Positions 7,281 through 28,458 are shown, counted from the first letter of the stretch. The stretch is 32,000 nucleotides of DNA from Tannockella kyphosi (GCF_021054785.1 NZ_CP088239.1:90001-122000); one strand, 5' to 3'. The notes: generated from the letters alone by a model not told the origin. Program-made: numbers and translations.

Positions 7281-7348
7281 TTACTTTATTTCTATGCTTT
7301 GATACGATTAAACTATAAGGGAGTGGTTTGATGAATGTTATTATATAA
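7281..7348 (+). pseudogene. Relic of a LytTR response-regulator gene: promoter/5'UTR plus the first 5 codons (MNVII) then stop
   Basis: 62/65 nt are identical to 20471-20535, which is the 5'UTR, SD and first 5 codons of the intact regulator gene at 20521. Homology ends abruptly at 7345/7346, followed immediately by TAA. Confidence 0.8.
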
Positions 7349-7392
7349 ACTATACTTATTAACTATTAGTTAAGATTTAAAGATATTTATCG

Positions 7393-7420
7393 TAACAATA
7401 TGTTAACAATGTTAAACAAT
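7393..7420 (+). promoter_or_regulatory. Triple direct repeat TAACAAT / TAACAAT / TAAACAAT (candidate LytTR-type activator site)
   Basis: Repeats at 7393-7399, 7404-7410 and 7413-7420, which is 42-70 bp upstream of the -35 below. On the opposite strand they read ATTGTT(T)AAC. Confidence 0.35.
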
Positions 7421-7461
7421 AGATAGATTATAAGATATACATAAATGACAGCGTTGTTGAT

Positions 7462-7489
7462 TTGAGTACGACATTTTAATATTTATAAT
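7462..7489 (+). promoter_or_regulatory. Sigma-A-like promoter of cassette 1
   Basis: TTGAGT (7462-7467), 16 nt, TATAAT (7484-7489), 15 nt upstream of the ATG at 7505, with SD GGAGAG between. Confidence 0.55.
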
Positions 7490-7504
7490 GAATGGAGAGA
7501 AAAA

Positions 7505-8380
7505 ATGAAGAATATTGTGATATTACTTATATTAGTTTTATGTACTGGGTGTCAAAACCAAGGAGAAGTGACAGACGAAGAAATTGATTTTCAAGAAGAT
7601 GGGCAAGTAGAAGAATATTTTTCGTATAGCCATGGAGTAGTTGATTTTAATCTTGAAGAATGGATTGTGGAAGGATCAACAATTGATTTTAATTATTATA
7701 TTGAAAACTTAGGAGATGCTTGTGAAATTGGTCTGTTTTTTTTAATTGATGGAATACCTCAACAAGTAACAATAAATAATGAAACAGGATATATGTATAA
7801 TTTAGATTATGATTCAGGGGAGTATGTTGAATTTGAAGTTTCTATCCAATCGATTGTAATGGAAGAGACAACAGAGGCAAATTTACAACCATGTGTTGTT
7901 TTAAACCCTTCTACGATTGTCACATCATCAACCTATACGTTTGATCACTTGATAAGCTGTACAGCACCTGTTGTACTTAATACAACAAATTTGGAATATG
8001 AAATTATAGAGAATATTGAAACACTTATTCCTAACAGTCGTGAAATTAGTGCGAGTGAAGTAGAAGAATTGGGAGGAGAGAAGATATGGAGTAGTGTTGT
8101 TATTAATCAGAGTAATAACAATGAAGTGTATGTATCAAACTTACCGTTGGACTTAACGATGTACGGTAAAGCAGGTACATATCGATTATTAGTAATGGAA
8201 GACAATACGTTTACTGGTATTTATACTACAGAAATGATAGAACAATCTTATTGTGATATTACTATTGATGCACTTCTAGAAGATACTAAAAATATTTCGT
8301 TTCTTATGATTCCTTTAGAAGAATTTGAAGGTAGCCAATATACTACAGCATTTCAAGCAACAAGGGGGATTGTAGAATGA
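7505..8380 (+). CDS. Lipoprotein, unknown function (cassette 1)
   Basis: Signal 'MKNIVILLILVLCTGC' followed by an acidic mature domain. Its stop overlaps the next start (ATGA). Confidence 0.75.
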   Translation: MKNIVILLILVLCTGCQNQGEVTDEEIDFQEDGQVEEYFSYSHGVVDFNLEEWIVEGSTIDFNYYIENLGDACEIGLFFLIDGIPQQVTINNETGYMYNLDYDSGEYVEFEVSIQSIVMEETTEANLQPCVVLNPSTIVTSSTYTFDHLISCTAPVVLNTTNLEYEIIENIETLIPNSREISASEVEELGGEKIWSSVVINQSNNNEVYVSNLPLDLTMYGKAGTYRLLVMEDNTFTGIYTTEMIEQSYCDITIDALLEDTKNISFLMIPLEEFEGSQYTTAFQATRGIVE

Positions 8381-9459
8381 AAAAACTAATTATTATATGT
8401 TTGTTATTGCTTTCTGGTTGTTCAAGTAACAGTAGCACAGATAGTGATAATGATAACGATTTTGAGCTTGAAGCTGCTGTTTCTATTGATACTATTGAAA
8501 TAGCTGATTATTCTACTGCTTTAGTAGAAGTTGTAAGTGATTATTTGGTTGTTTTATATTATGATGAAAATCAAGATATGCAGTATTATCAGGCAACATA
8601 TGATTGTAAAACATATGAGTTAATAGAAAAAGTGGAAATAGAGTTGGATACCTATTATCCAAGTATTCAAAAAATTGGTGACTATTTTTACTATGGTAGT
8701 GAAAGTATTCTAACATTGTATGACAAAAATTTAGAAATAGTAAAAGAGATTGACATTACTGATTTAGTCATTCTACAGGGGTCATCGCTTTTTTTAACAA
8801 AGCCTTTCATCATTTATGATGATTTAGAGGAAATAGTTTACTACGATAGTGTAAGCTATAGTTTAATCAAAAGGGATTTAGAAACAATGAATGATGAAGT
8901 TATACTTGATCTCAATGAAATAAAAGATGCTCCAACTACCATTACAGAGTTCAGTATGATCGAAGATGATATTGGATTTATTGGAACTATCGATCAGGGA
9001 GATATTTATGTCGGATGTTATGGAACAATCGATACTACAAATAAAAGTACCATGATATATGTACAAGAAGATATTAGCGGCTATTTCAATGAAGAATACT
9101 TATTTGTTTATGACAGTGTGCGAGTAGATAGCAGTGACTATGGAACTGGGGAAGCATTGATATATAATTTTGTGGAAGGTAGTATAAAGGAATTTGATGT
9201 CAGTTTATCGCTTTGTAGTTTTTTTGTTGAAATGATTAATGAAAATATAGTCGTAAGCTATGGTGGAGATACTTTGGATAGTGATGCTTATATTTTGAGT
9301 TTTGGGCAAGAACAGAAAGAATATGAAGATATAATTGATGGAGATATCGTACTTATAAGCTCTGCCTATAATGAGGCAAGAAATACTATTATTGTTAATT
9401 ACAGGACAATAGAGCTAGAAAATTTTGTTGTTGAGTTGGAGATTGATCATGAATATTGA
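8377..9459 (+). CDS. Lipoprotein with beta-propeller-like (DUF5050-like) repeats (cassette 1)
   Basis: Signal 'MKKLIIICLLLLSGC'. Recurring blade-like motifs: 'LVVLYYDEN', 'YFYYGSES', 'IVYYDSVS', 'LFVYDS'. Confidence 0.7.
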   Translation: MKKLIIICLLLLSGCSSNSSTDSDNDNDFELEAAVSIDTIEIADYSTALVEVVSDYLVVLYYDENQDMQYYQATYDCKTYELIEKVEIELDTYYPSIQKIGDYFYYGSESILTLYDKNLEIVKEIDITDLVILQGSSLFLTKPFIIYDDLEEIVYYDSVSYSLIKRDLETMNDEVILDLNEIKDAPTTITEFSMIEDDIGFIGTIDQGDIYVGCYGTIDTTNKSTMIYVQEDISGYFNEEYLFVYDSVRVDSSDYGTGEALIYNFVEGSIKEFDVSLSLCSFFVEMINENIVVSYGGDTLDSDAYILSFGQEQKEYEDIIDGDIVLISSAYNEARNTIIVNYRTIELENFVVELEIDHEY

Positions 9460-10318
9460 GGTTAAACACTTAACGAAATACTATGGAACAAATAAAGTAT
9501 TAGATAATATTTCATTACAGTTAGAAAATGGAGTATATGGTTTAATTGGTCCTAATGGTGCTGGTAAAACAACACTTCTACACATTTTGCTTTCGATACT
9601 AGACTTTGATGAAGGAAAGATTATAGTAAACAATAATGAGATAGAATTTGGGAGTGATGATTTCATTGAAACACTTGGATATTTGCCACAGTACCCTACA
9701 TTTTATCCTGCCTTTGAAGCAGAAGAATTTCTAACATATATGTGTATTTTAAAAGGTATACCGAAAAACATAATTCATCAAAAAGTTGACTCATTATTGG
9801 AAATGGTAAATTTGGAAAAAGATCGTAAGAAAAAGATAAAACATTTTTCAGGAGGAATGAGGCAACGCTTGGGAATTGCCCAGGCACTAATTAATGACCC
9901 TCAGCTACTTATTTTAGATGAACCAACAGCAGGGTTAGATCCAAAAGAAAGAATAAGATTTCGTAATGTAATCGCCAAACTATCAAATGATAGAATTATT
10001 ATTTTTTCATCCCATATCATTTTAGATATTGAATACGTAGCATCAAAAATTATTTTGTTAAAAGAAGGTCAAATAGAAATTGCAAATAACCAAGATGAAA
10101 TATTACAAAACATGCAAGGTAAAATAAGAGAAATAGAAATAGATAAAAAAGAAGTAGATCAATTTTTATCTTCAAAAGTTGCGATTAGGATAAAAGAAAG
10201 CAATCGTGACAACTATTCTATTCGTTTCATTAGTAATGAACAAATAGGAAATGAAGTTGCACCCTCTTTAGAAGACATGTATATGTATTATTTTGGAGAT
10301 ACAAATGATTGTCTATGA
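9449..10318 (+). CDS. ABC transporter ATP-binding protein (ABC-2/CcmA-like)
   Basis: Walker A 'GPNGAGKTT', signature 'FSGGMRQR', Walker B 'LLILDEPTAGLD', H-loop 'SSHI'. The ATG at 9449 (MNIEVKHL) overlaps the upstream stop. Confidence 0.9.
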   Translation: MNIEVKHLTKYYGTNKVLDNISLQLENGVYGLIGPNGAGKTTLLHILLSILDFDEGKIIVNNNEIEFGSDDFIETLGYLPQYPTFYPAFEAEEFLTYMCILKGIPKNIIHQKVDSLLEMVNLEKDRKKKIKHFSGGMRQRLGIAQALINDPQLLILDEPTAGLDPKERIRFRNVIAKLSNDRIIIFSSHIILDIEYVASKIILLKEGQIEIANNQDEILQNMQGKIREIEIDKKEVDQFLSSKVAIRIKESNRDNYSIRFISNEQIGNEVAPSLEDMYMYYFGDTNDCL

Positions 10319-11402
10319 ATATAAGAAACTAATAAACTTAAAATCTATTCTATTTCTATTTGTCCTAATAGTAATAAACTGTGCGTATATTATTCAAACA
10401 AATGATTTTGGTGATATGGAGAGTTATTATCAAGGGTACCAAGAAGTAGTATCTATTGTAGAGGGTCCTATTACACAACAAAATGTTGATTTTATCTATG
10501 ACGAAAGACAGGCTGCTATTGACATTGTCCAAGTTGGTAATTATGAAACAGAAGTGTTTGATGAATCAACGTATACTGGGTATATTTATGCAGATATGAA
10601 TATGCTTGATGAGCTATATCAAGACTTGCAAAGAGTGTATTTGTATGGGTCGAGTATGGATGAAAAAATTACTGTGTTAGAAGAAAATATTGAGAAAAAT
10701 ATAGTGGATGAAGAGTACTATACTGCTTTAATTAATATACTATCCAATCGTCAACTTACAGAATACTATGACACAATGGGAGTAGAAACATATATCAACT
10801 ATTCATTTTCATCTTTACTTTTATTATTTTTTATTGTGATGATTGTCTCAAAGTATATGTATTATGAAAAAGATAATAATATGGATTCCATTATTTTAAC
10901 GACATCTTTGGGAAGAAGAAAACTAAAGGAGGTGAAGATAATTATTATATTTATCTTTATAAGTTTAGTTACCGTTCTTTTTTCTTGCTGTGATTTTATA
11001 ATGCATGATTTTATTTATCAGATAAATGGATTGAGTAACCCAATTTATAGTTTATCTTCTTTTGCATCAACTAGTCTTACACTATCAATATTCCAATTTA
11101 TAATATTACAAACTGTTTTAAAAATAATGGGTTTCCTTTTTGTAGGATTGTTAATAGCTTATTTAGTTTTTTATGTATCTAATCAAACAAGTGTCGTGAT
11201 TTCGATATTACTAGGAATATTTATGATTCAAAAGATTCATTGTTTTTATCAAATTCCACTTATTACCTCGAATTGTGATTTGTTTTTATTTTTCAATTTT
11301 TACATTGATACATTTTATTGGCAAGTAGTTATGGGCTTTGTTAGTTTAGTGTTATTGATTCTAATGTATAGGAAGAAGGTAATATTGGATGCTAAGATAT
11401 GA
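10305..11402 (+). CDS. ABC-2-type permease P1 (N-terminus MIVYEYKKL)
   Basis: GGAG plus 6 nt before the ATG at 10305. One N-terminal TM, then a Y/E/D-rich loop of roughly 130 aa, then 5 TMs. Confidence 0.75.
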   Translation: MIVYEYKKLINLKSILFLFVLIVINCAYIIQTNDFGDMESYYQGYQEVVSIVEGPITQQNVDFIYDERQAAIDIVQVGNYETEVFDESTYTGYIYADMNMLDELYQDLQRVYLYGSSMDEKITVLEENIEKNIVDEEYYTALINILSNRQLTEYYDTMGVETYINYSFSSLLLLFFIVMIVSKYMYYEKDNNMDSIILTTSLGRRKLKEVKIIIIFIFISLVTVLFSCCDFIMHDFIYQINGLSNPIYSLSSFASTSLTLSIFQFIILQTVLKIMGFLFVGLLIAYLVFYVSNQTSVVISILLGIFMIQKIHCFYQIPLITSNCDLFLFFNFYIDTFYWQVVMGFVSLVLLILMYRKKVILDAKI

Positions 11403-13299
11403 GTTAAAGAAAATACTTATTTATCAAAAAAGTTGGATTGTTTTATTCATTTTATTTCTATCTTTTTTTCTAACAGCTTATCAAAATAATGTGCAAGAAC
11501 TAGCAACTTCTTTTTATCAACAAGAATATTATAATCAGTTACAAGGTCAAAATGTATTCGAAATACAAGAATATTTAGAGCTAGAAAAGGAAAATATGGA
11601 TAATATTTCTATTGTTATTATGACGACATTAGAGGATTACCAAGCAGGGATTATTAATCAAGATGAATATATTGAAAGAATGGAACAACAAAATGAATAT
11701 CAATATAAATATGATGCGTTTTCACAGGTACAAGAGTATTATCAATATCTTCAAGATGATTATCTAAGAACGTATATTTATGAAGCAAATATAGAAAATT
11801 ATTTTACTCAAGACTTTCCCTTATTGCTTATTATTGTTTGTATATGGATAAGTGTAACTACTTTTTATAATGAAAAAGAGATGGTTCCACTTATCAACAC
11901 ATCAAAAATAGGACGAATAAAACTAGTAAAAACAAAGATAATTTCTTTGAGTATTTTATTTCTATTAACCATTGTAGTATATCACTCTATCAATCTTTTG
12001 TTTTGTTATGATTGGCAATATAGTAATGACTTATTTGCCGTTGTATCAAGTAGTATGTTTTTTCAAGACAGTTTTTATAATGGAACTTTTTTATCTCTAT
12101 TACTATTACTTGCTCTAATGCAATATATTGCAGTAATTATTCTTGTTTTTATAACACTTTTATTATTTTATATTTTACGTATCCGTATTATCCCTTTTAT
12201 AATAATTTTGTTGATGAGTTATTTACTGCCGATATTTACTTTCTCTTTAGACGTATTGTATTATATTGTGCCGATTGGTTTTTTCAATCCAGTAATGTAT
12301 TATTTAGAATCATTAAAAGGAGTTGAAGTGCTTGGTATGATATTAGTTGTTAGCGTTATTCTTGCATTATTTGTAAGTAAGAAAATAAAGATAATCCCTA
12401 TTTTTGTAGTACTTTTGATGCTTAGTGGTTGTAGCAATCAAATGATAAATGATTCAGATGTGTCATATACAAATGATGATACTTATTCATACAATCAAGA
12501 TGTAGCAATAATTTATAATCAGATTTATAACTTTCATGAAGATGCATATTATTCATTAAATCGAGATGTTACTAAGAATCTTGAAAGTACGGGTATTGGT
12601 TATATGCAAAATCAATTATATTATTATGTTGCAAATCTAGAAGATGAAGTGGTTTTAGTTTGTTTGGATACATCGTCCTATAACCAAGAAATCATTTATA
12701 CCTTTGATTATTATGGTATTGGGTCAATAAATTATATTACATCAATTAAAGTCTATGGAGATGATTATTACATACGATATTATGATCGAATAGAAAAGAT
12801 AGCTAATGGAAAAGCTTCTGTTTATATTGATGGATCAGCAAATATTATTGGTTGGATTAATGAGAATGTTTATTTTATAAATGATGTAAATCAACTCATA
12901 AAGATGGATCAAGAAGGGAATCAAGAAGTAGTATTACAAGAGTTAGTATCACTTGTTAGGATCGTTGATAATACCTTATATTATGTTTCTTTACAAAATG
13001 AATTTTTATATTCTTATGATTTCGAAACAAAAGAAACTCAGTTACTTATTCAACAAAAAATAAATGATTTTGAAATATATGATAATTATATATATTATGT
13101 AACATTAGAAGAAAATGGAATAACAAAAGTAAAATTAGAAGATAATAGCCAAGAGTATTTGTTACAAGACAGAGAAGTATATTTCATTACAATTTATGAA
13201 GGAATCTTTTTTGGTGCAAAAATATCAAATAGTAATCAAATAGGATTTTATTATACAAACTTTGATATGAAAGAATGTATTGAAATAAATTATAAGTGA
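11389..13299 (+). CDS. ABC-2-type permease P2 (MLRYELKKI) fused in frame to a lipoprotein-like beta-propeller (DUF5050-like) domain
   Basis: The permease half spans roughly aa 1-340. It is followed by 'KKIKIIPIFVVLLMLSGCSNQ' (signal peptide plus lipobox, Cys codon 12430-12432). The C-terminal domain carries repeats 'LYYYVAN', 'VYFINDVN', 'LYYVSLQN', 'IYYVTLEE'. Confidence 0.75.
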   Translation: MLRYELKKILIYQKSWIVLFILFLSFFLTAYQNNVQELATSFYQQEYYNQLQGQNVFEIQEYLELEKENMDNISIVIMTTLEDYQAGIINQDEYIERMEQQNEYQYKYDAFSQVQEYYQYLQDDYLRTYIYEANIENYFTQDFPLLLIIVCIWISVTTFYNEKEMVPLINTSKIGRIKLVKTKIISLSILFLLTIVVYHSINLLFCYDWQYSNDLFAVVSSSMFFQDSFYNGTFLSLLLLLALMQYIAVIILVFITLLLFYILRIRIIPFIIILLMSYLLPIFTFSLDVLYYIVPIGFFNPVMYYLESLKGVEVLGMILVVSVILALFVSKKIKIIPIFVVLLMLSGCSNQMINDSDVSYTNDDTYSYNQDVAIIYNQIYNFHEDAYYSLNRDVTKNLESTGIGYMQNQLYYYVANLEDEVVLVCLDTSSYNQEIIYTFDYYGIGSINYITSIKVYGDDYYIRYYDRIEKIANGKASVYIDGSANIIGWINENVYFINDVNQLIKMDQEGNQEVVLQELVSLVRIVDNTLYYVSLQNEFLYSYDFETKETQLLIQQKINDFEIYDNYIYYVTLEENGITKVKLEDNSQEYLLQDREVYFITIYEGIFFGAKISNSNQIGFYYTNFDMKECIEINYK

Positions 13300-13849: not shown

Positions 13850-14557
13850 ATGATGATTGAAATTAAGAATTTAGAATTTGGATATAAGAATCAACCTGTT
13901 GTTTTGGATAACATAACAACTAAGATATTAGGGGGTAATATTGTTGGAGTCTTGGGTCATAATGGTGCAGATAAAACTACGTTGTTTAAATTATTATCAG
14001 GGTTATTAAAGCCAAATCATGGAAATATAATGATAGAGGGAGTTTCTCCCAATGTAAATAAAAAGAACAGAGGAATACTTTCTTATATGCCAGAGCATGA
14101 TGGTTTATATGCTAATCTTACTTTGATGGAAAACATACGATTTCGTGGAGAGATATCACATGCATCTAAGGATATTTTAGATGATCAAATTATGGATATA
14201 TTAAAAAAAGTTAAGTTATGGGATAAAAGAAATTATAAAGTAAATGAATTATCGAATGGTATGAAAAAAAGATTATCTTTAGCTGCTGCTTGTTTAAATA
14301 ATCCCAAAATCTTGTTATTAGATGAACCTACCAATGGAGTTGACCAAGAAAGCTTAAAGGCAATGCATGAAATGCTTCTTGCTTTAAAATCACAAGGTTC
14401 AACCATATTAATTAGTACTCATGATTTTCATACTGTTGAAAAAATATGCGATGATTTACTTATTTTAAATCAAGGTAAAATTGTATATGATGGAAACAAT
14501 CTTCCTTTACATAAACTTGAACAAACGTACTTACATTTAACTAAAGGAGACGAATAA
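13850..14557 (+). CDS. ABC transporter ATPase with non-canonical Walker A and signature motifs
   Basis: Walker A reads 'GHNGADKTT' (GAT codon at 13970-13972 where Gly is expected). Signature reads 'LSNGMKKR' (14249-14263). Walker B 'LLLDEPTNGVD' and H-loop 'STHD' look normal. SD GGAGG lies before the ATG. Confidence 0.85.
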   Translation: MMIEIKNLEFGYKNQPVVLDNITTKILGGNIVGVLGHNGADKTTLFKLLSGLLKPNHGNIMIEGVSPNVNKKNRGILSYMPEHDGLYANLTLMENIRFRGEISHASKDILDDQIMDILKKVKLWDKRNYKVNELSNGMKKRLSLAAACLNNPKILLLDEPTNGVDQESLKAMHEMLLALKSQGSTILISTHDFHTVEKICDDLLILNQGKIVYDGNNLPLHKLEQTYLHLTKGDE

Positions 14558-14558
14558 G

Positions 14559-15212
14559 ATGGTAGATGATGTTAGGATCATTTTTAAAAATGAATTCAAT
14601 TGTTTGAAAAATCATAAGGCTACTTTAGTTTGTGTTGTTGGTTGTCTTATTTCAGGATTACTGTTTATCTATCAAAATGGTGCATCAAGTATGGTTGGAC
14701 TCATGGGAGGGATTACCATAATTCCTACTTTCTTTGGAAGTCTTTGTGGGGTACAAATCATATCAGATACTATTGTAAAAGAAAAAAGAGAAAATACATT
14801 AGATATCATACTTTCATCAGGAATTTCGGAATATTCGATTATTATTGGAAAAGTTTTAAATGGCTTGTTTGTAGCTTATCTTGTAGCGATACTCATGATA
14901 AATGTTTTGAAGTTTGGGTTTTATTTTACAACGAATGATTTTAATTACATTACTTTCTATTGGTATGATTTTATAAATCCATTAGTTTTTGGATATCTAT
15001 CATTGAGTGCTTCTATCCAAGCATATCTACTATTAAATGATGAAAAGTTTGCTCCAGTAATAGCCATTGTTGTAGTTAGTTTGATTTTATATGGTTTGAT
15101 AAAGCTACTTAATCTAATCGGTATTTATAATATAGGTATAGTGATTATGCTAGGTGTGTTATTGTGTTTTATAACCACTTTTTTAGCATCAAAAATACTA
15201 AATAAAACTTAA
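14559..15212 (+). CDS. ABC-2-type permease (6 TM)
   Basis: SD AAAGGAG. The gene is coupled to the ATPase gene with a 1-nt gap. Six hydrophobic segments. Confidence 0.8.
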   Translation: MVDDVRIIFKNEFNCLKNHKATLVCVVGCLISGLLFIYQNGASSMVGLMGGITIIPTFFGSLCGVQIISDTIVKEKRENTLDIILSSGISEYSIIIGKVLNGLFVAYLVAILMINVLKFGFYFTTNDFNYITFYWYDFINPLVFGYLSLSASIQAYLLLNDEKFAPVIAIVVVSLILYGLIKLLNLIGIYNIGIVIMLGVLLCFITTFLASKILNKT

Positions 15213-16070: not shown

Positions 16071-16215
16071 GTTTCTTTTCCCTCTTTTCGATATTGTGAA
16101 ATCTATCATTATTTTAATATATAAATAATAAAAAAGCGTATTTTTGCATCAAAAATGCAGTTTTAGCATAAATTATTCATTTTTTTATAAAATTTAGTAT
16201 AATAAATATATAAAA

Positions 16216-20173: not shown

Positions 20174-20193
20174 TTAAATCACCCTCTAAGATA

Positions 20194-20470: not shown

Positions 20471-20520
20471 TTACTTTATTTCTATTCTTTGATACGATTA
20501 AACTATGAGGGAGTGGTTTA
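20471..20520 (+). promoter_or_regulatory. Promoter/5'UTR of the TCS2 operon (intact copy of the 65-bp repeat)
   Basis: Possible TTTACT, 17 nt, TACGAT, then SD GAGGGAG. It is duplicated at 7281-7330. Confidence 0.5.
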
Positions 20521-21213
20521 ATGAATGTTATTATAATTGAGGATGATAAGGATTTTTCGAAAAAATTACATACTGATCTACAAGTTTTTTTTGGAGAAAA
20601 TAAGTGTGATACTGTTATATCTAATGTCTCTGAAAATTTTGATAATGCTATTTCAAATTTAGAGTTTGATATTGCTTTTTTAGATATAGATTTAATACTA
20701 TGCAACGGTATCGACTTGGCTCATAAGATTGCTAAAAAAAATACAAAATGCTTAGTTATTTTTGTGTCTTCTAGAAAAGACTTGGTCTTTCAGTCTTTAA
20801 CAGTGCAGCCTTTTTATTTTGTAAGAAAGCAGTCGTATCAAGATGATCTTAGAATGCTATTTGTATTATTAAGGAAACATCTAAATAGAAACATGATTCC
20901 AGCATTTACGTTACGTAAGACTAAAAAACAAATACCATTACATACCATTTGTTATGTAGAATCTAAATTGCACAACCTATTTATATATACAGAGAAAGAG
21001 GTTTTAACAGAAAGTTACACTTTACAAGATTTTATAAATTACTCGAATGAATTTGGATTTGTTCAAGTACATCGATCGTATATAGTTAATATGGCCATGG
21101 TGGATAGAATATCTGTGGGACAAGTTATGCTCTTTAATGGGATTTCAATTCCTGTAGGCAGAAAATATAAGGTTAATTTTTTAGAAGCATATGAAAGGTA
21201 TTTATTACTATGA
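20521..21213 (+). CDS. LytTR-family response regulator (TCS2)
   Basis: Receiver 'MNVIIIEDD...IAFLDIDL...VIFVSS...FVRK'. LytTR domain 'ICYVESKLHNLFIYT...FVQVHRSYIVNMAMV'. Confidence 0.9.
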   Translation: MNVIIIEDDKDFSKKLHTDLQVFFGENKCDTVISNVSENFDNAISNLEFDIAFLDIDLILCNGIDLAHKIAKKNTKCLVIFVSSRKDLVFQSLTVQPFYFVRKQSYQDDLRMLFVLLRKHLNRNMIPAFTLRKTKKQIPLHTICYVESKLHNLFIYTEKEVLTESYTLQDFINYSNEFGFVQVHRSYIVNMAMVDRISVGQVMLFNGISIPVGRKYKVNFLEAYERYLLL

Positions 21214-22427
21214 TGGAACTATTTGAGATATTTATTATATTTATAGAGAGCATTCTATTTTCTGTTTTTATTACAAAGTACTTTTGTATCGTGGAGATAA
21301 GAAAAAGTATTGCTGTATCAAGCTCTTTATTTTTAATAAGTAGTATAGTATGTAATCTTTTTAATACCAATGGGATTGTATTAGGAGCGATAACCCTGGC
21401 AATTGCTATAGGAACAATTGTTTACTTTCTAAAGAAAATTACTTTTCAAGTAATATATATTCCTGTTCTTTATTATGCACTGATTATTGTTACTTCACTT
21501 CTAGCATTAATTATAATTTCCATCGTAACAGGTATAAGCTCTAATCAAATAATTAACAATACACAGTATTATATCTATATTTGTCTTTTAGCGAAGTTTT
21601 TATTATGTACAATAACAGGATTTATTCTTTATTTAGAAGTGAAGATAAATTTTTCTTTAACCCTTGAAAAATGGGGAATATTACTAGTTAAGGAATTTAT
21701 TTTGATAGGATGTATAGCAATAATATCCACAGGTATTATCACTAATTCTATATCCCTCATTCATCTTGTAGTTATTCTTTTTATGTTGTGTTGTGTGTCT
21801 TTTTTGTCAATATTTTCAGTATATGATACAAACAAAATAAATGAGGAAAAATTAATGCATGAAAAAACATTACAAAGACTTGCGTACCAGCAGGAAAATG
21901 TGAAAATGATAAAGGATTTAAAAGTGGATATTGATGCTATCAATCATCGGATGTTTTATGTTTTAGAAAAAGTAAAACATGAACTTGAGGTTAAAAATTA
22001 TGATAAAGCTATAGGTATCCTCAATGATTATAAACAAGTTGTCATTAAACAAGATATTTTTGTATTGACTAATAATGAATCATTCGATGCATTGTTTAAT
22101 TTGAAAATTAAAGAAATGAAAATGCTAACTGATGTGAAGTGCTGTATTACCATATCCAAACGAGATTTATATGATGGAGTGCATTTTATCAACGGAGTGA
22201 TGTCACTGCTGAACTATGTTTCAAATAGTGAGAAAATTGATATTTATATAAGTGAAAAAGTTAATAGGGTGATAATAAAGTTATATTTTAGTGGGTTCGA
22301 TGAGATAGAAGAAGATGGTTCCTATGCATTTATTGAGAAAGCATTTGGTTTTTGCAAAAGTAGGATAGTGATAGATTTAAAAAGTGAAGTAAAATCTATT
22401 AATATTGTGTTATTAAATGAAGAGTAA
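21210..22427 (+). CDS. AgrC-like polytopic membrane protein with an apparently degenerate kinase core (TCS2 partner)
   Basis: ATGA overlap with the regulator gene. About 6 TMs. The H-box position reads 'DIDAINHRM' (21927-21950), the N-box position 'LLNYVSN', and the G-box position 'DGSYAFIEKAF'. Confidence 0.75.
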   Translation: MMELFEIFIIFIESILFSVFITKYFCIVEIRKSIAVSSSLFLISSIVCNLFNTNGIVLGAITLAIAIGTIVYFLKKITFQVIYIPVLYYALIIVTSLLALIIISIVTGISSNQIINNTQYYIYICLLAKFLLCTITGFILYLEVKINFSLTLEKWGILLVKEFILIGCIAIISTGIITNSISLIHLVVILFMLCCVSFLSIFSVYDTNKINEEKLMHEKTLQRLAYQQENVKMIKDLKVDIDAINHRMFYVLEKVKHELEVKNYDKAIGILNDYKQVVIKQDIFVLTNNESFDALFNLKIKEMKMLTDVKCCITISKRDLYDGVHFINGVMSLLNYVSNSEKIDIYISEKVNRVIIKLYFSGFDEIEEDGSYAFIEKAFGFCKSRIVIDLKSEVKSINIVLLNEE

Positions 22428-22449
22428 ATTAGTAAATAGATTTATTGAA

Positions 22450-22557
22450 ATGAGTATCATTGACGAGAGCGAAGGGCTTACTATGTCTTTCAATTTGGCA
22501 AATATAATAACTACTTTGTTCTTATCACTTATTTTATACCGTTATGAATCAATATAG
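22450..22557 (+). CDS. Candidate small hydrophobic peptide (35 aa, or 24 aa from the internal ATG at 22483)
   Basis: MSIIDESEGLTMSFNLANIITTLFLSLILYRYESI. The internal Met is preceded by GAAGGG plus 6 nt. It lies immediately downstream of the TCS2 kinase-like gene. Confidence 0.2.
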   Translation: MSIIDESEGLTMSFNLANIITTLFLSLILYRYESI

Positions 22558-22766
22558 ATGGATGTCATTGTAAAACAGCTTTATCATGTTTTTTTGACGT
22601 ATGTAATGGTTTTTGAAACACTACTCAATTAAATCATCTTACTTTTTAAAATATTAATTAAACCAAAAGGGGACCAATTGAAATAGAATCCAGTAATGAA
22701 GACGGTATACATTGAAATCATATTAAAGGATTAAGTGAAGTAGGATTGTTTCCATGGTTAAAGATT

Positions 22767-22780
22767 CCCCCCCAAAAAAA
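22767..22780 (+). repeat. C7A7 homopolymer tract
   Basis: CCCCCCCAAAAAAA in otherwise very AT-rich intergenic DNA. It lies inside a 34-codon ORF (22754-22858, MVKDSPPKKCNYRF...). Confidence 0.9.
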
Positions 22781-22961
22781 TGTAATTATAGATTCGTTGA
22801 AATCAAAAACAGTGTTCTGTACAAGAGTGATTGTATATCAAACTTTGAAGCACAATGAATTTAATTAGCAATTGTGAAATAAACTAAAGATTTATATCAT
22901 TTCTTAAAGTGAATGCAACAAAACTTTATTTGTTAAAATATTAGAATTGGTGTTTGTGCAA

Positions 22962-23028
22962 TTAAACAGTTGTTTAAGTAAAAAAAGCGAATATAAAAAG
23001 AATATATAGTACACTAAACTTAAACAAT
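22962..23028. promoter_or_regulatory. TTAAACA / TGTTTAA motif copies upstream of cassette 2
   Basis: Inverted pair TTAAACAG-TTGTTTAA (22962-22977), which resembles the AgrA-type ACAGTTAAG box. A further CTTAAACAAT lies at 23019-23028. The same TTGTTTAA core occurs in the 7393-7420 repeats. Confidence 0.3.
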
Positions 23029-23038
23029 ATAAAAATAA

Positions 23039-23079
23039 TTAGAACAAAGCATTTTACATAGTATAGTGCTTTGTTCTAA
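23039..23079 (+). promoter_or_regulatory. Perfect 13-bp-arm hairpin/palindrome just upstream of the cassette 2 SD
   Basis: TTAGAACAAAGCA (23039-23051), 15-nt loop, TGCTTTGTTCTAA (23067-23079). There is no T-run. The SD GGGAGG follows within 12 nt. Confidence 0.6.
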
Positions 23080-23101
23080 TTGTAAAGAAGGGAGGAATAA
23101 T

Positions 23102-24175
23102 ATGAAAGTTTTTCTGTGTAGTGTTTTGTTGCTGTTATTAAATGGCTGTAGTGTAGTGGAAGAGGATAATGTTGTAATGTCTCAAGAAGATTATTATATT
23201 GTTGGTTTTCATAACTATAATAATTATGGAATGTTTATGATTGGTGATGATTCACAAGGCTTATCTTATTATGACATAGAAAGTAATGCAGTTATTTCAA
23301 TACCTAATAAAACAATATATGATGATTCATTATTGTATCCAGGTGTTGCTAATGGGTTTACTTTGTATAATGATTATTTATATTATACGATTAGTAATGG
23401 AGGATCTATTTTTATTTACCAAATGGACAAAGATGGTACGAATGTAAAGCTATTATTGGAATATGAAAATAAAGAATATGATAGTACGGCAACGGGATTA
23501 ACGTTTATTTTTACTGATAATAAAATGTACTTTACATTGTATTTAGAAAATGCGGTGGCTGAAGGGACAGAGAAATATTATCAAATTTCTTGTTATGATT
23601 TAAATAAGGATGAGTTATTGTTAGGAACGATTGAACCAGCATGTGTAGATTTGGTTGGAGTAGAGGATGACAACATCTATTATATTTATAATGATACATT
23701 TCTTTATGAATGGAATATACAAAGTCAAGAATCAAATTTGATTTATGAGGGGACATATTTAAGAGAAGGGTATCATGGTTCTTTTGAATATACAGAGAAT
23801 AAATTATATTTTGTTGAAAACGAACAAACAGTATATCAATATGATTATCTAGAAAAAGAGTTAATTGAGCTATTTTCAAGTGAAACACCTATTGAAATCC
23901 GATATGTAGATGGAGATTATATATTTTATACGAATGTAACTTTACTTTCAACATTCACTGATGCTACGTTTTATGAGTATGGATACTACAATGTTGATAC
24001 TTTGGAAAACATAGCAGATTATCGTAGTGGTGGAGTGTTTTTTACACCTACTGGTGATAATGATGACTACTTCTTTGGTGCAATAGAAGGAACTGGAAAA
24101 CAAAGTATAATTTTAAAAGAAGATTATTATAATGGCAATTTTGATAAAGCAATACTTATAGAGGAGTATTATTAA
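23102..24175 (+). CDS. Lipoprotein with beta-propeller-like (DUF5050-like) repeats (cassette 2)
   Basis: 'MKVFLCSVLLLLLNGC' after SD GGGAGG, so the track start at 23066 is an extension. Repeats 'LYYTISNGG', 'MYFTLYLEN', 'IYYIYNDT', 'LYFVENEQ', 'YIFYTN'. Confidence 0.75.
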   Translation: MKVFLCSVLLLLLNGCSVVEEDNVVMSQEDYYIVGFHNYNNYGMFMIGDDSQGLSYYDIESNAVISIPNKTIYDDSLLYPGVANGFTLYNDYLYYTISNGGSIFIYQMDKDGTNVKLLLEYENKEYDSTATGLTFIFTDNKMYFTLYLENAVAEGTEKYYQISCYDLNKDELLLGTIEPACVDLVGVEDDNIYYIYNDTFLYEWNIQSQESNLIYEGTYLREGYHGSFEYTENKLYFVENEQTVYQYDYLEKELIELFSSETPIEIRYVDGDYIFYTNVTLLSTFTDATFYEYGYYNVDTLENIADYRSGGVFFTPTGDNDDYFFGAIEGTGKQSIILKEDYYNGNFDKAILIEEYY

Positions 24176-24176
24176 A

Positions 24177-25049
24177 ATGGAACTAGAGATAAGAGGGGTT
24201 AGTAAACAATATCATAATAAATTAGCATTATGTAATTTTTCTATCGTTATGGAAGAAGGTATCTATGCTCTTCTTGGACCTAATGGTGCAGGGAAAAGTA
24301 CGTTGATGAACATTCTTGCGGGATGTTTGGATAAAACAAATGGAGAAATATTAATAGATGGGCAAGACTTAGAAAAACGACTATTTAAAAATATCGCTTA
24401 TATGCCTCAACACCAACAACTGTATGAGGATTTTACAGGACAAGAACTAATGGAATATTTTTCGTTGTTAAAAGGAATGAATAAAAAAGAAGCTAGTAAA
24501 GAAATAGAGAGATATCTAAAAGATGTCGGTTTATATGAGCAAAAGGATATGCTTATTAAAGCTTATTCTGGAGGAATGAAACAACGTATTTTATTTGCTG
24601 CAACTCTTTTAAATAATCCTAAGATACTTATTTTAGACGAAGTAACTGCTGGAATGGATCCAATGCAAAGATTACAAATATTAAATATATTATCTATGTT
24701 TTCTAAAGATAAAATTATTTTATTTGCAAGTCATGTATTATCGGACATAGAAATGATTGCAACGCATTTTATTTTTCTAAAAGAAGGAAAAATTATTGTA
24801 GAAGATACAATGGATGGTATCTTACAAAATTTTGATAAATATGTTTATGAAAAAGAAATAAATTTTCAAGAAGCAGACTTTTTCCAAAAGAAACATCTTT
24901 GTACAAGAGTAAAAAAAGTGAGTAATCAAACATGCTTAGTTCGCTTCTTAAGCGATATACCAAAGGAAAACTATCCTTTAAAAGATGTAGAACTAGAAGA
25001 TGTTTATGTATCTTATTTCTTTGAGGAAATTCAAGATGTTTCGCTATGA
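24177..25049 (+). CDS. ABC transporter ATP-binding protein (paralog of 9449-10318)
   Basis: Walker A 'GPNGAGKST', signature 'YSGGMKQR', Walker B 'ILILDEVTAGMD', H-loop 'ASHV'. Confidence 0.9.
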   Translation: MELEIRGVSKQYHNKLALCNFSIVMEEGIYALLGPNGAGKSTLMNILAGCLDKTNGEILIDGQDLEKRLFKNIAYMPQHQQLYEDFTGQELMEYFSLLKGMNKKEASKEIERYLKDVGLYEQKDMLIKAYSGGMKQRILFAATLLNNPKILILDEVTAGMDPMQRLQILNILSMFSKDKIILFASHVLSDIEMIATHFIFLKEGKIIVEDTMDGILQNFDKYVYEKEINFQEADFFQKKHLCTRVKKVSNQTCLVRFLSDIPKENYPLKDVELEDVYVSYFFEEIQDVSL

Positions 25050-26964
25050 GATAAAAAAATGTACAAAGAATACAGCCTTTAAAAGTATTTGGTTTTTATT
25101 GTGTTTGTTTGCAATTATCATGATATTCCTAGATGCCAAAGATTATCAGAAATATCTTTTAATCGAAGATAATTTTGAATATTTAGAGGTATTAGAAGAT
25201 TATGATACGTATCAAGAACAAATAACAAGTCAATTAGAGAGTAATCAATTAATGTTGGGTGGATCACTATTTCAAACTAGCAACCAGTATTTAAATGAGT
25301 ATGTCACAAACTATGAAAATTATTATAACAAACTTATTGATTATTCTTTTGAATATGTTGAGAATTTAGCCTATAGTATGATTTTAACAAATCATATACC
25401 AATTTATATTACCTTTATTTTTATTGTTTATATGGCAGCGTATTTATTCTTAAAAGAAAAAGAAAACAAGATTAGTGATGTTTTATGTAGCTATCCTAGA
25501 TATCTACAAAAACATCAGTATCATAAATTACTTGCAATACTAATTCTATCTATAGGTACCTTTCTATTCTTAGAAGCAGTAAAGTTTATGATAGCACTAA
25601 GGATGTTAGATATATCTTCGTTTCAAGGATATATACAAGGTGTTAAAGAATATTTATATTGTCCTTTTTCATGGATGATAGGGACTACTATATTTGTTCA
25701 ATTTATTTTGGTGATAGGGATACTTGTTGTTAGTAGTGTAGTAATAAGTGCACTTGTAAATAGAGTGAATAAGTCTATTCTCTTTTATATGAGTGTTACT
25801 TTATTTGTCATCATGGAGTTTCTTTTCTATTTTTATATACCAAATGACTCTGTTTATATCTTTTTCAAGGTTATCAATATTGTAACAATACTTGATATTA
25901 GTAATTTGTTTACTAATTATTATTGTTTTAATTTATTTAATCACTGTATTCTTTATTATCAAGCGATTTGTGTTTTTTTAGGTATCGTGTTCCTACTTTC
26001 AGGATGCTTACTTACAAGAAAAAGTGCGGTGAACAAACAAACAAAACATAAGATAATGAAGATAAAAATAAAGAATAGTATGTTATCTTTTTATGAGATA
26101 AAAAAAGCAATGATTATTAAAAAGGGATTTCTTGTGTTGTTGTTAATAATCATTTATCAAGGATATGCGATAACACATTATGAAGTATATCAAAATCTAG
26201 AAGATTATTATGTACAATTATTTTCTCTTGATTTACAAGGAGATATTGGAGAATCTCAAGAGAACTACTTTTTAGAAACAGAGGAATACTATCAAAGTCT
26301 AGTAAATAATATGATGGAACTAGACGAGCTCTATCAAAATGGAGAATTGGATTTAGCAACATACTATTCATCATATGAAGCTAGTAAGTTAAAATTAGAA
26401 TCAAAAGCATATTATGAAGATGTAAAAGAAAGCTATGAATATGCGGTGAGTGAGGGGAAAACACAGTTTATTTATGAACAAGGATATGTAGAAGCTTTTT
26501 TAGAAAAAGATGTTCTTATACAAAATATTGTATTGATGTTAATTCCTTTATCTTTGATTATTGGGATGTATGCAACTTATGATAATAGAATTAAGATGAA
26601 TAATCTTATTATGCTTTATGAAACTAAAAAAGATCGAGTAAAAAATATTCAAAGAAATATATGCATCCTTATTTCAGTGTTTTTATATCATCTAATCTTT
26701 GTAATAAATAGTTTTCAAATATTAAATTATTTCCAAGCAACACAATATAGCTTTTTAGTAACCAATTTACTATGTTTCAATCTTCCTGTTTCTATATCAA
26801 TTGCTACATTATTATTTATTTTATATGGACTAGGAATCATGTTATCTATGTTAGTAGCTATGTTGTTCTATTGGATAGCTAAAAAGTACAGAAACCCTAT
26901 AAATGCAATATTTATTTTATTAATGATGGTTGTATTAGTAATATTGTTTATATGGATATTATAG
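25036..26964 (+). CDS. Double-length ABC-2-type permease (two fused P1/P2-like halves)
   Basis: The first half starts 'MFRYEIKKC' (ATG 25036 after GAGGAA). The second half starts in frame at 26080 as 'MLSFYEIKKAM', with no SD. Each half has 1 TM, then a Y/E-rich loop, then about 5 TMs. Confidence 0.75.
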   Translation: MFRYEIKKCTKNTAFKSIWFLLCLFAIIMIFLDAKDYQKYLLIEDNFEYLEVLEDYDTYQEQITSQLESNQLMLGGSLFQTSNQYLNEYVTNYENYYNKLIDYSFEYVENLAYSMILTNHIPIYITFIFIVYMAAYLFLKEKENKISDVLCSYPRYLQKHQYHKLLAILILSIGTFLFLEAVKFMIALRMLDISSFQGYIQGVKEYLYCPFSWMIGTTIFVQFILVIGILVVSSVVISALVNRVNKSILFYMSVTLFVIMEFLFYFYIPNDSVYIFFKVINIVTILDISNLFTNYYCFNLFNHCILYYQAICVFLGIVFLLSGCLLTRKSAVNKQTKHKIMKIKIKNSMLSFYEIKKAMIIKKGFLVLLLIIIYQGYAITHYEVYQNLEDYYVQLFSLDLQGDIGESQENYFLETEEYYQSLVNNMMELDELYQNGELDLATYYSSYEASKLKLESKAYYEDVKESYEYAVSEGKTQFIYEQGYVEAFLEKDVLIQNIVLMLIPLSLIIGMYATYDNRIKMNNLIMLYETKKDRVKNIQRNICILISVFLYHLIFVINSFQILNYFQATQYSFLVTNLLCFNLPVSISIATLLFILYGLGIMLSMLVAMLFYWIAKKYRNPINAIFILLMMVVLVILFIWIL

Positions 26965-26976
26965 AAAGGATCTATT

Positions 26977-28458
26977 ATGAAAAAGATATATATAATCACA
27001 ACACTATTTTGTAGTATTTTATTATTATCAGGATGTTCTGATGATACCAAACAAACCTTAGTTATCTATGCCTATAATCCTTTTCCAGATGAACAAATAA
27101 GCACAGAACAAATAGATGCAATCAATGACTATTTAGATTCTTTAGGAAAAGACTATGAAGTAGAGTATCGTGAGGTAGTGGGAAGTTATGAGCAGTTATT
27201 AGATGTAACAGAATACTCACAAGAAATGATGGATGATATGCTTATTAATGGAACGGAGTATTACGTTTTAAAAGAGGATTATTCAACAACACAAAGTGTT
27301 TTAGAATCACAAGAAACAGTACACTTATATCAAATGGGTTACTTTGGTTTTGATGATATTGAAGAAACAAATCTAGTTGATGCAGGGTTAGTTATTAATT
27401 TAGAAGAAATATTAGAAACAGAACAGGGTCAAGTTATCTATGATAGTTATCCTGAACTTGTATGGGATTCTATTAAAATAGACGAGGAAATATACTCGAT
27501 ACCTTCACTGCTTAATTACACAGTAACAAATGCTATGGATAGCTATGATAGTGAATATTATTATCTTGCATTTAATAAAGAGATGTGTGATGAGTTAGGA
27601 TTAGATCCCTCTTCTTGGGATTATAAAATATACGAACATGGTGATGAGTTAATAGATGCTTTGAATCAATTAAGTACGGATGTTTTATATGAAACATTCA
27701 GTTCAGCTGACTTTCAGTCTATTTTCCCATACCTTACTCCTTTAAATGGGACCTTTGATGCATCTCCTTTTGTAGTAGATGAACGTACAGGAACAATAGA
27801 GCTATTAATAGATTGCCAAGAGTATGTAGCGATGTTTGAATTTTTTGATGAAATAAGAGAAGGGGTTACTAATTATCCATCTAATAGTTATGTAGCACCT
27901 CAAGAATCAGTAACTCCACTTTTTGAAGTAGGTGTGTATAAAACAAATGAAAATAGTGATGACTACTATTTTATTGAAAATGATAGTTATTATTTGAATC
28001 AATTGACTTATCGTTCTACTGCAATAGCTTCTTCTAATGATAATATGGAAGATACGTTAGATTATTTATACTTACTGTCTAGTGATGAAACACTAGTATC
28101 TCTCTTACTGGCAATGTATGATGATGGTACTTTAGGTGACTATGGATTAGGTAATAGTTACTTAATAGAAGAGGATATTAATAATCTTTTAACAACACCA
28201 TATCCAGAGAACTTTAGTGTAGAAAGTCATAGTGAGTATTTAGAAACCTTTGAATTATCAACAATATTTAATCAAACAATTTGTTATGATGATTATCTAG
28301 ATGAATTACTCCCATATTTACCATATCATTATTTTCTGATACCAGGTTCTTATGAATCTTCAAGTGGTGATTGGATAGATGTTGATAAATATAATAACTA
28401 TATGGATATTGATTTATTGTATGAAATTAGAGATTATTTAAATCTTTGTATCGACTAA
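26977..28458 (+). CDS. Large acidic lipoprotein (possibly solute-binding-protein-like)
   Basis: 'MKKIYIITTLFCSILLLSGC'. The 470-aa D/E/Y-rich mature domain carries no firm motif. Confidence 0.7.
   Translation: MKKIYIITTLFCSILLLSGCSDDTKQTLVIYAYNPFPDEQISTEQIDAINDYLDSLGKDYEVEYREVVGSYEQLLDVTEYSQEMMDDMLINGTEYYVLKEDYSTTQSVLESQETVHLYQMGYFGFDDIEETNLVDAGLVINLEEILETEQGQVIYDSYPELVWDSIKIDEEIYSIPSLLNYTVTNAMDSYDSEYYYLAFNKEMCDELGLDPSSWDYKIYEHGDELIDALNQLSTDVLYETFSSADFQSIFPYLTPLNGTFDASPFVVDERTGTIELLIDCQEYVAMFEFFDEIREGVTNYPSNSYVAPQESVTPLFEVGVYKTNENSDDYYFIENDSYYLNQLTYRSTAIASSNDNMEDTLDYLYLLSSDETLVSLLLAMYDDGTLGDYGLGNSYLIEEDINNLLTTPYPENFSVESHSEYLETFELSTIFNQTICYDDYLDELLPYLPYHYFLIPGSYESSSGDWIDVDKYNNYMDIDLLYEIRDYLNLCID

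Follow-up and report, generated by a model that had tools for sequence, protein, structure and literature searches.

The chromosome of Tannockella kyphosi (Coprobacillaceae, Bacillota) carries, within a stretch of 32,000 nucleotides (NZ_CP088239.1, 90001-122000; GC content ~28%) that is referred to here as the window and is numbered from its first nucleotide, two gene cassettes that are both members of a large, uncurated Firmicute family of ABC-2 (type V-like) ATP-binding cassette (ABC) transporters. Each cassette encodes an ATPase, two types of permease unit (P1 and P2), and lipoproteins. In cassette 1 (7505-13299), P1 and P2 are the products of separate, overlapping genes, and P2 continues without interruption into a beta-propeller module. 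In cassette 2 (20521-28458), P1 and P2 are fused into one polypeptide, and the gene for a probable propeller lipoprotein lies upstream of the ATPase gene. A preliminary description of this DNA had presented the cassettes as two diverged, LytTR-linked paralogs related by reciprocal gene fusion and fission. Every open reading frame (ORF) that it named is present where it was placed; as set out below, the split and fusion of the permease is genuine, and the other elements of that description require revision.

The four permease units begin with the sequences MIVYEYKKL, MLRYELKKI, MFRYEIKKC, and MLSFYEIKKA, which had been quoted exactly and considered to be an unusual signature. The pattern YE.KK is found only five times when the 32 kb are translated in all six frames and, because four of these five occurrences are the N-termini of permease units, the signature is not a product of chance. 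It is real in all four units but is not peculiar to them, as it is a hallmark of the whole family, in which E7 and K10 are nearly invariant; we take it to be the N-terminal amphipathic helix that is common among ABC-2 permeases. Hydropathy analysis of each unit (290-430 residues) reveals a short basic N-terminus, a first transmembrane segment (TM1), an acidic loop of 100-130 residues, and five additional hydrophobic segments. P1 of cassette 1 (10305-11402, plus strand) is composed of the YEYKK helix, TM1, an extracytoplasmic loop of ~125 residues, and TM2-6. P2 constitutes the first 330 residues (11389-12378) of a 636-residue fusion protein (11389-13299, plus strand), and its TM2-3 loop bears an ABC-2-like E-x-E...GR..K motif. 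The single permease of cassette 2 (25036-26964, plus strand) is a P1-P2 fusion of 642 residues, the second unit of which begins at nucleotide 26080.

Direct comparison of P2 with the second half of 25036-26964 yields a weak match (25.6% identity over 207 residues; 21 bits). Fused homologs from metagenomes connect P1 with the first half of the cassette 2 permease and P2 with the second half, and the concatenated sequences of P1 and P2 are collinear with fused proteins, including 25036-26964 itself. A profile of eight Lachnospiraceae homologs was then cut at the unit boundary, and the two halves were scored separately (Z of one million). The N-half profile matches the first half of 25036-26964 (48.6 bits) and P1 (46.3 bits) and gives no match to P2 or to the second half of the fused protein, and the C-half profile matches the second half (74.1 bits) and P2 (26.0 bits), with a cross-match to P1 (30.8 bits). 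These scores indicate that the two unit types descend from an old internal duplication, and that the separate genes of cassette 1 and the fused gene of cassette 2 form a true split/fusion pair. The half-profiles, the metagenomic intermediates, and the collinearity thus agree with the arrangement that had been proposed, and the possibility that the halves of 25036-26964 are not homologous to P1 and P2 was checked and is contradicted by the profile matches to both halves.

Word-indexed homology searches returned almost exclusively self-matches, and the extent of the family emerged only in an exhaustive profile search, which recovered 5541 clusters (50% identity) at E ≤ 1e-3 and 2073 at E ≤ 1e-30. 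The best 150 of the 5541 clusters all consist of fused proteins, 692-854 residues in length. Thus, fused P1P2 is the ordinary state of the permease, and the split observed in cassette 1 is the unusual one. None of ten family representatives that were scanned passes a Pfam threshold, although a few relatives reach 22.6-30.6 bits on ABC2_membrane_3 (cut-off of 31.6) and 19-23 bits on ABC2_membrane_4 (cut-off of 27), and one of the ten carries a name in its source, namely ‘hypothetical protein’. A search with the family profile identified no sequence relative in the Protein Data Bank (PDB). The window permeases have no Pfam match at E ≤ 0.1, and at E ≤ 10 only 9 bits on ABC2_membrane_4 are obtained. 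No FtsX domain is matched in P1, P2, or P1P2, and the combination of FtsX and MacB_PCD that marks the FtsX-type (type VII) BceAB/MacB permeases is missing. No Pfam or NCBIfam model covers these permeases, in keeping with the preliminary description, which had not recognized the architecture as a characterized transporter type.

Gene order was surveyed in one genome per species using an eight-sequence alignment as the query, which yields a sample that is biased to one Lachnospiraceae-centred clade. The 80 loci are nearly all from gut Clostridia (Lachnospiraceae, Oscillospiraceae, Eubacterium ramulus, Acetatifactor muris, and Roseburia) and include Erysipelotrichaceae-like ‘Bacilli’. The loci contain a co-directional five-gene module that encodes a response regulator (~224 residues), a histidine kinase (~430 residues), a lipoprotein (~470 residues), an ATPase (~245 residues), and P1P2 (~760 residues). 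Where 4.3 kb or more of upstream DNA is available (65 loci), the lipoprotein is encoded without exception, the kinase in 61 loci, and the regulator in 53; the value for the ATPase (47/65) is an undercount that results from crude ORF calling. The regulators are composed of Response_reg and Trans_reg_C domains (OmpR-type), and the kinases have a HAMP-HisKA-HATPase_c architecture. The set of lipoprotein, ATPase, and permease that the preliminary description had suggested surveying is therefore conserved, but the accompanying regulators are OmpR-type and not LytTR. The flanks of the module are heterogeneous. Of 150 flanking proteins, nine are ECF sigma factors and seven are response regulators, the two Pfam groups seen most often; no conserved biosynthetic partner is found among them, and the gene that follows P1P2 is not conserved in the relatives. 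We found no published function for this module, which occurs in thousands of sequence clusters of gut Clostridia, including the cultivable E. ramulus and A. muris, and neither its permease nor its lipoprotein is covered by a Pfam or NCBIfam model.

Some loci depart from the common layout. In two of them (L016, 4759-9189, and L006, 7377-9292), two or three consecutive lipoprotein genes are located upstream of the ATPase gene, as is also the case for the two lipoproteins L1 and L2 of cassette 1 (see below). In three loci from uncultured ‘Bacilli’ (L077, L054, and L064), two membrane-anchored proteins (~310 and 232 residues) with polybasic N-termini are encoded between the kinase and the lipoprotein, where they stand in place of a recognizable regulator.

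Each cassette contains one ATPase gene. ATPase 1 (9449-10318, plus strand; 289 residues, including a C-terminal extension of ~70 residues) and ATPase 2 (24177-25049, plus strand; 290 residues) match ABC_tran with 108.9 and 107.6 bits, respectively. Their best partial matches in NCBIfam, all under the cut-offs, are to the GldA, lantibiotic-protection, and DrrA models and, together with ABC_tran, assign both proteins to the ABC-2 ATPase group (DrrA/GldA/NodI-like); scores on the PmtC and PmtA models (110-121 bits) are far under the respective cut-offs. The two ATPases are 37% identical, and ATPases of other genomes match each of them as well as, or better than, its counterpart in the window does. 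The proposal of two diverged paralogous cassettes thus holds insofar as both belong to one transporter family, but they are not close paralogs.

A propeller lipoprotein joined to the permease

The C-terminal 282 residues of the 636-residue fusion protein match DUF5050 (PF16472) with 38.2 bits, above the cut-off of 27, and the protein is listed at NCBI as DUF5050 domain-containing. The propeller module (12433-13299) is separated from P2 by an embedded lipoprotein signal peptide (12379-12432; weak LPAM_1 match) that acts as a seventh TM segment. The sequence that links the final permease helix to the propeller, SKKIK-IIPIFVVLLM-LSGC, is in frame and has no start codon of its own, and the signal peptide is complete, consisting of KKIK, a hydrophobic core, and a canonical L-S-G-C lipobox with Cys348. 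By the positive-inside distribution of charges, the N-terminus, the TM2-3 loop, and SKKIK are situated inside, and the acidic 105-residue loop and Cys348 are situated outside. With Cys348 outside, the chain therefore crosses the membrane once more, so that the lipoprotein pathway would meet an intact lipobox. The ORF is identical in Logan assemblies (four contigs, two of them from runs SRR26879383 and SRR26879390) and, because the same ORF recurs in independent assemblies, the fusion is not an assembly artefact. We found the P2-propeller fusion in no other organism, and no plasmid or metagenome contig matches it. The welding of the propeller to P2 shows that the propeller lipoprotein, to judge from this gene architecture, works on the permease itself.

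The embedded lipobox raises the question of whether polytopic proteins can be cleaved internally by the lipoprotein pathway. On the most far-reaching reading, the family would be a distinct ABC class with a surface propeller as the obligatory subunit of a tandem ABC-2 permease, and the 636-residue protein might be a polyprotein precursor that, after membrane insertion, is processed by Lgt and signal peptidase II at Cys348, releasing a seven-TM permease half and a lipidated propeller. We regard this as doubtful. No case in which a polytopic membrane protein undergoes lipoprotein processing at an internal position is known to us, and a brief literature search identified none.

The partner lipoprotein of the family is linked to DUF5050 by a metagenomic relative (L001), because the lipoprotein encoded upstream of its ATPase matches both DUF5050 (29.3 bits, above the cut-off) and the Lachnospiraceae lipoprotein profile. 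This profile also matches designed beta-propellers and NHL repeats in the PDB. The corresponding lipoprotein of cassette 2 (23102-24175, plus strand) scores 21.5 bits on DUF5050 (E = 1.5e-4), which is under the cut-off of 27, and is a probable DUF5050-type propeller. Both this protein and the fused module carry a periodic blade motif, D/N-x-[LIVM]-Y-[YF], with a spacing of 39-50 residues. On the basis of the DUF5050 similarity, the shared blade motif, and the canonical position upstream of the ATPase, the counterpart of the fused propeller in cassette 2 is most likely this upstream lipoprotein and not the trailing lipoprotein L3.

L3 (26977-28458, plus strand; 493 residues, lipobox LSGC) is encoded 12 nucleotides after the P1P2 permease gene, with which it is probably co-transcribed, and had been considered the separated equivalent of the fused propeller. 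It is an orphan. L3 has no DUF5050 match even at E ≤ 10, no blade motif, and no match to the family lipoprotein profile; no relative was found in Pfam, NCBIfam, the PDB, plasmids, or metagenomes, and it bears no similarity to the other lipoproteins of the window. An AlphaFold2 model computed without an alignment has low confidence (predicted local distance difference test [pLDDT] of 31.8) and is mixed alpha/beta. The preliminary description envisioned paralogous LytTR cassettes in which the same trailing lipoprotein is either fused to P2 or freed as L3. Both trailing modules do begin with an LSGC lipobox after the last permease unit, and the leader of a LytTR gene precedes cassette 1 as a 65-nucleotide copy (see below). 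This model is difficult to reconcile with the lack of DUF5050, blade motif, and similarity to the fused module in L3, with its low-confidence mixed alpha/beta prediction, with the DUF5050-like gene of cassette 2 that is positioned upstream of the ATPase as in the family, with the lack of conservation of the gene after P1P2, and with the OmpR-type regulators of most relatives, and we attach scarcely any credence to it. The fusion and fission events are consequently not reciprocal. The Rosetta-stone inference that had been drawn from them is upheld for the permease halves and the propeller lipoprotein, which the P2-propeller fusion identifies as one machine, but it does not extend to L3. An impression by eye of L3 as a solute-binding protein gained no support from sequence searches of Pfam and the PDB. 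We also considered an importer in which L3 would be the binding protein and rejected it, as the permeases are ABC-2-like and not of the importer type and L3 is not a conserved member of the family module.

Cassette 1 encodes two additional lipoproteins. L1 (7505-8380, plus strand; 291 residues, signal peptide with Cys) belongs to no Pfam or NCBIfam family, has no DUF5050 match even at E ≤ 10, and does not match the family lipoprotein profile. L2 (8377-9459, plus strand; 360 residues, lipobox LSGC), encoded directly upstream of the ATPase, occupies the position of the propeller lipoprotein of the family. It had been described as propeller-like, for which we found no support: there is no Pfam or NCBIfam match, no DUF5050 match even at E ≤ 10, and only a weak alignment to the family lipoprotein profile (hhalign, probability 29%). 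Pairwise comparisons of the lipoproteins (BLASTP, phmmer) and hhalign against the family profile yielded nothing significant, and a hidden Markov model of the blade, derived from the fused propeller, failed to distinguish real from shuffled sequences. The propeller lipoproteins of Lachnospiraceae (L003, 7871-9280; alignment A8) contain an LCSxAGCxHDTxDC motif with invariant Cys, Cys, His, and Cys positions (C108, C113, H115, and C120 in L003), and these positions may constitute an extracellular metal site. The Tannockella lipoproteins are devoid of this motif.

Regulation of the two cassettes

Cassette 2 opens with a LytTR-type response regulator (20521-21213, plus strand), and its assignment as such is borne out by matches to both LytTR (60.6 bits) and Response_reg (35.8 bits). 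No regulator gene is located next to cassette 1, and this cassette is linked to LytTR only through the 65-nucleotide copy. The designation ‘LytTR-linked’ thus applies to cassette 2 and not to the family, since in the related loci the regulators are of the OmpR type and the kinases of the HAMP-HisKA type; LytTR control is local to cassette 2 of the Tannockella genome. Inspection by eye of the DNA upstream of both cassettes revealed no convincing pair of LytTR-type direct repeats, promoter and terminator scans of the window performed no better than on shuffled sequence in this AT-rich DNA, and an Rfam search of the window gave no match.

The position of the kinase in cassette 2 is occupied by a polytopic membrane protein of 405 residues with ~6-7 TM segments by hydropathy (21210-22427, plus strand). 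It had been termed kinase-like, which is hinted at only by its position and multi-TM N-terminus, as no GHKL, HisKA, or any other Pfam or NCBIfam domain is matched. The HATPase_c_5 domain and His box of the GHKL kinases that partner LytTR regulators were not detected, and a BLASTP comparison with the genuine HATPase_c_5 kinase of the window is not significant (E = 0.41). The protein may be a pseudokinase or another kind of partner. By eye, a His-box-like stretch reads IDAINH, with an Ile in place of the AgrC-type phospho-acceptor His.

A 46-residue ORF (22417-22557) overlaps the end of this gene and may represent either a gene for a small peptide or decayed sequence. The 675-nucleotide gap (22427-23101) between the genes for the 405-residue protein and the lipoprotein is a long gene-free stretch, and neither this gap nor the 46-residue ORF has a family or Rfam match. 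Directly before the ribosome-binding site of the lipoprotein gene at 23102 is a perfect 15-nucleotide inverted repeat (23037-23051, AATTAGAACAAAGCA, and 23067-23081, TGCTTTGTTCTAATT) with a 15-nucleotide loop and no T-run after it, which could function as an operator, an attenuator, or an RNA hairpin.

The 65-nucleotide copy upstream of cassette 1 (7281-7345, plus strand) is 95% identical (3 mismatches) to 20471-20535 (plus strand). The latter consists of the 50 nucleotides upstream of the regulator gene, including the ribosome-binding site, and its first five codons, and represents the genuine 5′ end. In the copy, which is located ~160 nucleotides upstream of cassette 1, the encoded MNVII is followed by a TAA stop codon. 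Because the identity of 95% far exceeds the ~37% protein identity between the cassettes, the repeat must, by this measure of sequence divergence, be recent. It could have arisen by promoter or leader capture, as a deletion scar that was refreshed by gene conversion, or as a recombination joint.

The relic that ends in MNVII and a stop codon, the absence of a regulator beside cassette 1, and the failure to find the fusion in any other organism would also be compatible with a decaying, unregulated duplicate from which the regulators were deleted, with the 65-nucleotide copy as the scar and the P2-propeller fusion as a functionless read-through. However, cassette 1 is composed of five consecutive intact ORFs over 5.8 kb (28% GC) whose starts and stops overlap in a manner typical of translational coupling, and the fusion protein has an intact signal peptide and lipobox and a coherent topology. 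In addition, the disparity between the repeat (95% identity) and the ATPases (37% identity) is indicative of a recent event and not of an old scar. We therefore consider decay of cassette 1 to be improbable.

Possible function and related systems

An AlphaFold2 model of 25036-26964, computed from a six-sequence alignment (pLDDT of 63.5, predicted template modeling score of 0.47), shows outer domains that are all-helical. The top matches of this model in a Foldseek search against the PDB are the ABC-2/type V membrane domains of KpsM, PmtD, ABCG25, MlaE, and NosY, none of which is significant; KpsM is the best Foldseek match, and PmtD affords the best target-normalised TM-scores (0.44-0.49).

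By analogy with known systems, we give an even chance to the family being an inducible ABC-2 machine for removal or detoxification that contains a lipoprotein subunit. The working unit would consist of two copies of one ATPase, a pseudo-heterodimer of P1 and P2, and a membrane-anchored propeller lipoprotein on the outside, with P1 and P2 each contributing an amphipathic YExKK helix in the cytoplasm, TM1, a helical domain of ~100-190 residues outside the membrane, and TM2-6. The two-component system would induce the pump upon exposure to an extracellular membrane-active compound, such as an antimicrobial peptide, a bacteriocin, or a lipid-like toxin. The propeller would bind this compound or pass it on at the outer leaflet, and ATP hydrolysis would expel it from the membrane, analogous to the action of LanI with LanFEG, or of CprABC, under the control of LanRK or CprRK. 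Cassette 2 retains the gene order of the family, but a LytTR regulator and an atypical membrane protein have taken the place of the OmpR-type pair, and an orphan lipoprotein has been gained. Cassette 1 lacks a regulator of its own and has P1 and P2 as separate genes, and its propeller is carried on the C-terminus of P2 via the retained signal peptide, which would thread the chain outward. If this proposal is correct, the module would represent a major uncounted class of resistance to peptide antibiotics or host defence in the gut microbiota. The Tannockella fusions provide a testable subunit map, in which P1 pairs with P2 and the propeller associates with P2 on the outer face.

The closest precedents in architecture are the CprABC and LanFEG modules of lantibiotic resistance and immunity, in which one ATPase serves a heterodimer of two different ABC-2 permeases, together with a two-component system and, in some cases, a lipoprotein (PMC5786555). 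The window shares with these modules the single ATPase with two distinct permease units (P1 of the N-type and P2 of the C-type), the adjacent two-component system, and the lipoprotein partner that is found in some of them. Several observations weigh against the analogy and the function deduced from it. LanE/G and CprB/C are ~240-250 residues in length and lack a large outer domain (PMC5786555), whereas the window units span 290-430 residues with a helical outer domain of 100-190 residues; likewise, LanI is not a propeller (PMC5786555), whereas the lipoprotein here is a propeller of 360-500 residues. The permease units are not six-TM permeases of ~240-250 residues that match MutE/MutG-type models, and no NCBIfam model, those of the MutE/MutG type included, matches any window permease unit or a relative of the family (P0103). 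ATPases 1 and 2 score 178.9 and 160.6 bits, respectively, on the lantibiotic-protection model TIGR03740, for which the cut-off is 309.75. There is no named homolog, and no bacteriocin gene was found nearby. The model of 25036-26964 is of only moderate confidence (pLDDT of 63.5), and with a best Foldseek E value of 0.75 the match to the ABC-2 fold is not significant. What the analysis shows is the gene content, the size of the family, the conservation of gene order, both fusions, and the topology; the substrate class, for which analogy is the guide, the direction of transport, and the role of the propeller are what we infer. Finally, the partner of the lipoprotein could be the kinase instead, on the model of WalA of Clostridioides difficile, a predicted beta-propeller lipoprotein that is encoded beside an OmpR-type two-component system and has been proposed to modulate the kinase (PMC9210968). 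The likeness of WalA to the window lipoproteins is by description, and its operon contains no ABC transporter; a kinase-serving role is less apt because cassette 1 has the fusion but no kinase. The permease units are, moreover, usually fused in the present family, unlike those of LanFEG and CprABC. Membership in a known bacitracin or lantibiotic immunity family, which the preliminary description had held up as the finding that would undo its claim of a new architecture, is not borne out: the lantibiotic architecture is resembled, but all of the family thresholds are missed.

Additional parallels exist among the exporters of Bacillus subtilis. AlbCD, SkfEF, EcsAB, and YthPQ are type V systems with a single-polypeptide membrane part, and LnrLMN, YhaQP, NatAB, and YhcHI are ‘type V/VI hybrid’ exporters with outer domains (PMC11466899). 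The former resemble P1P2 in having both membrane halves in one polypeptide, and LnrLMN resembles the module in its two different permeases and two-component system. The outer domains of the hybrid exporters are located between TM1 and TM2, as in the window units, and that of YhcHI is a helical coiled-coil; those of LnrMN, YhaP, and NatB are beta-rich, whereas those of the window are predicted to be helical, and the likeness to all of these systems is by description. Some of the B. subtilis type V and hybrid ATPases carry a C-terminal regulatory domain (PMC11466899), and none of these exporters has a conserved propeller lipoprotein gene. PmtCD, an ABC-2 exporter that clears amphipathic peptides (phenol-soluble modulins) from the membrane, resembles the proposed pump but lacks an outer domain, a lipoprotein, and a tandem fusion.

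The main rival to a removal machine, which we consider unlikely though worth serious attention, is a mechanotransducer in which ATP-driven motion of the helical P1/P2 outer domains drives the propeller as an enzyme, chaperone, or receptor and nothing is transported, as in NosDFY-NosL, FtsEX, and LolCDE. Such a role would account for the obligatory nature of the extracytoplasmic partner (65/65 loci) and for its covalent attachment to P2. NosY is among the top fold matches, although these are not significant, and in NosDFY-NosL, too, an ABC-2 permease works together with a lipoprotein and an extracytoplasmic partner that is obligatory. NosY is, however, a homodimer without tandem units that works with a beta-helix protein (NosD) and a copper chaperone, in denitrification and without a two-component system. 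The invariant Cys and His residues of the family lipoprotein hint at a metal or catalytic site, but the propellers of the window itself are without this motif and no enzyme family was detected in any of the lipoproteins. A parallel to the tethered propeller is offered by OpuA and GlnPQ, in which an additional membrane segment attaches the substrate-binding domain, normally a separate lipoprotein, covalently to the permease. These are type I importers with a periplasmic-binding-protein fold, whereas in cassette 1 an ABC-2 unit is joined to a propeller and the tether is a full lipoprotein signal peptide, lipobox included.

The KpsM match also raises the prospect of an exporter for an endogenous envelope component (a glycolipid, a teichoic-acid-like polymer, or a capsule precursor) akin to TarGH, Wzm-Wzt, and KpsMT, with the lipoprotein receiving the product. 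ABC-2 exporters of this kind are common, and one relative lies among glycoside hydrolase genes. Nonetheless, the heterogeneous flanks contain no conserved glycosyltransferase or polymer-synthesis neighbors, a dedicated two-component system as found in most loci typifies inducible detoxification and not housekeeping export, and two very diverged copies reside here in a region with a relaxase fragment and an IS110 transposase. We accordingly give little weight to a role in envelope assembly, in comparison with the even chance accorded to inducible detoxification. The general architecture of the module has known analogues; what the analysis adds is the very large, uncurated module of gut Firmicutes and a natural fusion that links the lipoprotein to the pump.

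Surrounding genes

The DNA between the cassettes contains a third, small ABC-2 pair composed of an ATPase (13850-14557) and a 217-residue permease (14559-15212). This pair adjoins a genuine LytTR regulator (15372-16109, minus strand), and a genuine GHKL kinase with HATPase_c_5 is encoded at 16967-18253 (minus strand); a 109-residue membrane protein (16590-16919) is situated between the two. Family scans identified a short MobA/VirD2 relaxase of 316 residues (18680-19630) and an IS110-family transposase (3376-4539, minus strand), which together suggest a mobile or accreted region. A 57-nucleotide repeat (3168-3224 and 5159-5215; 75% identical) is present on both sides of the transposase gene.

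Cassette 2 is neighbored by a second ABC system consisting of tandem genes (28576-32000). The first encodes a MacB-like ATPase-permease fusion (28576-30651, plus strand) with matches to ABC_tran and partial matches to L_ocin_972_ABC and MacB. Its ATPase matches the model for lactococcin-972-type bacteriocin exporters best, and its hydropathy profile (TM1, a large loop, and three TM segments) corresponds to an FtsX-like topology, which P1, P2, and P1P2 do not share. The second gene starts at 30635 (plus strand), extends beyond the end of the window, and encodes the same kind of N-terminal ATPase. A MacB/FtsX system also directly follows the P1P2 gene in one metagenomic relative (L002).

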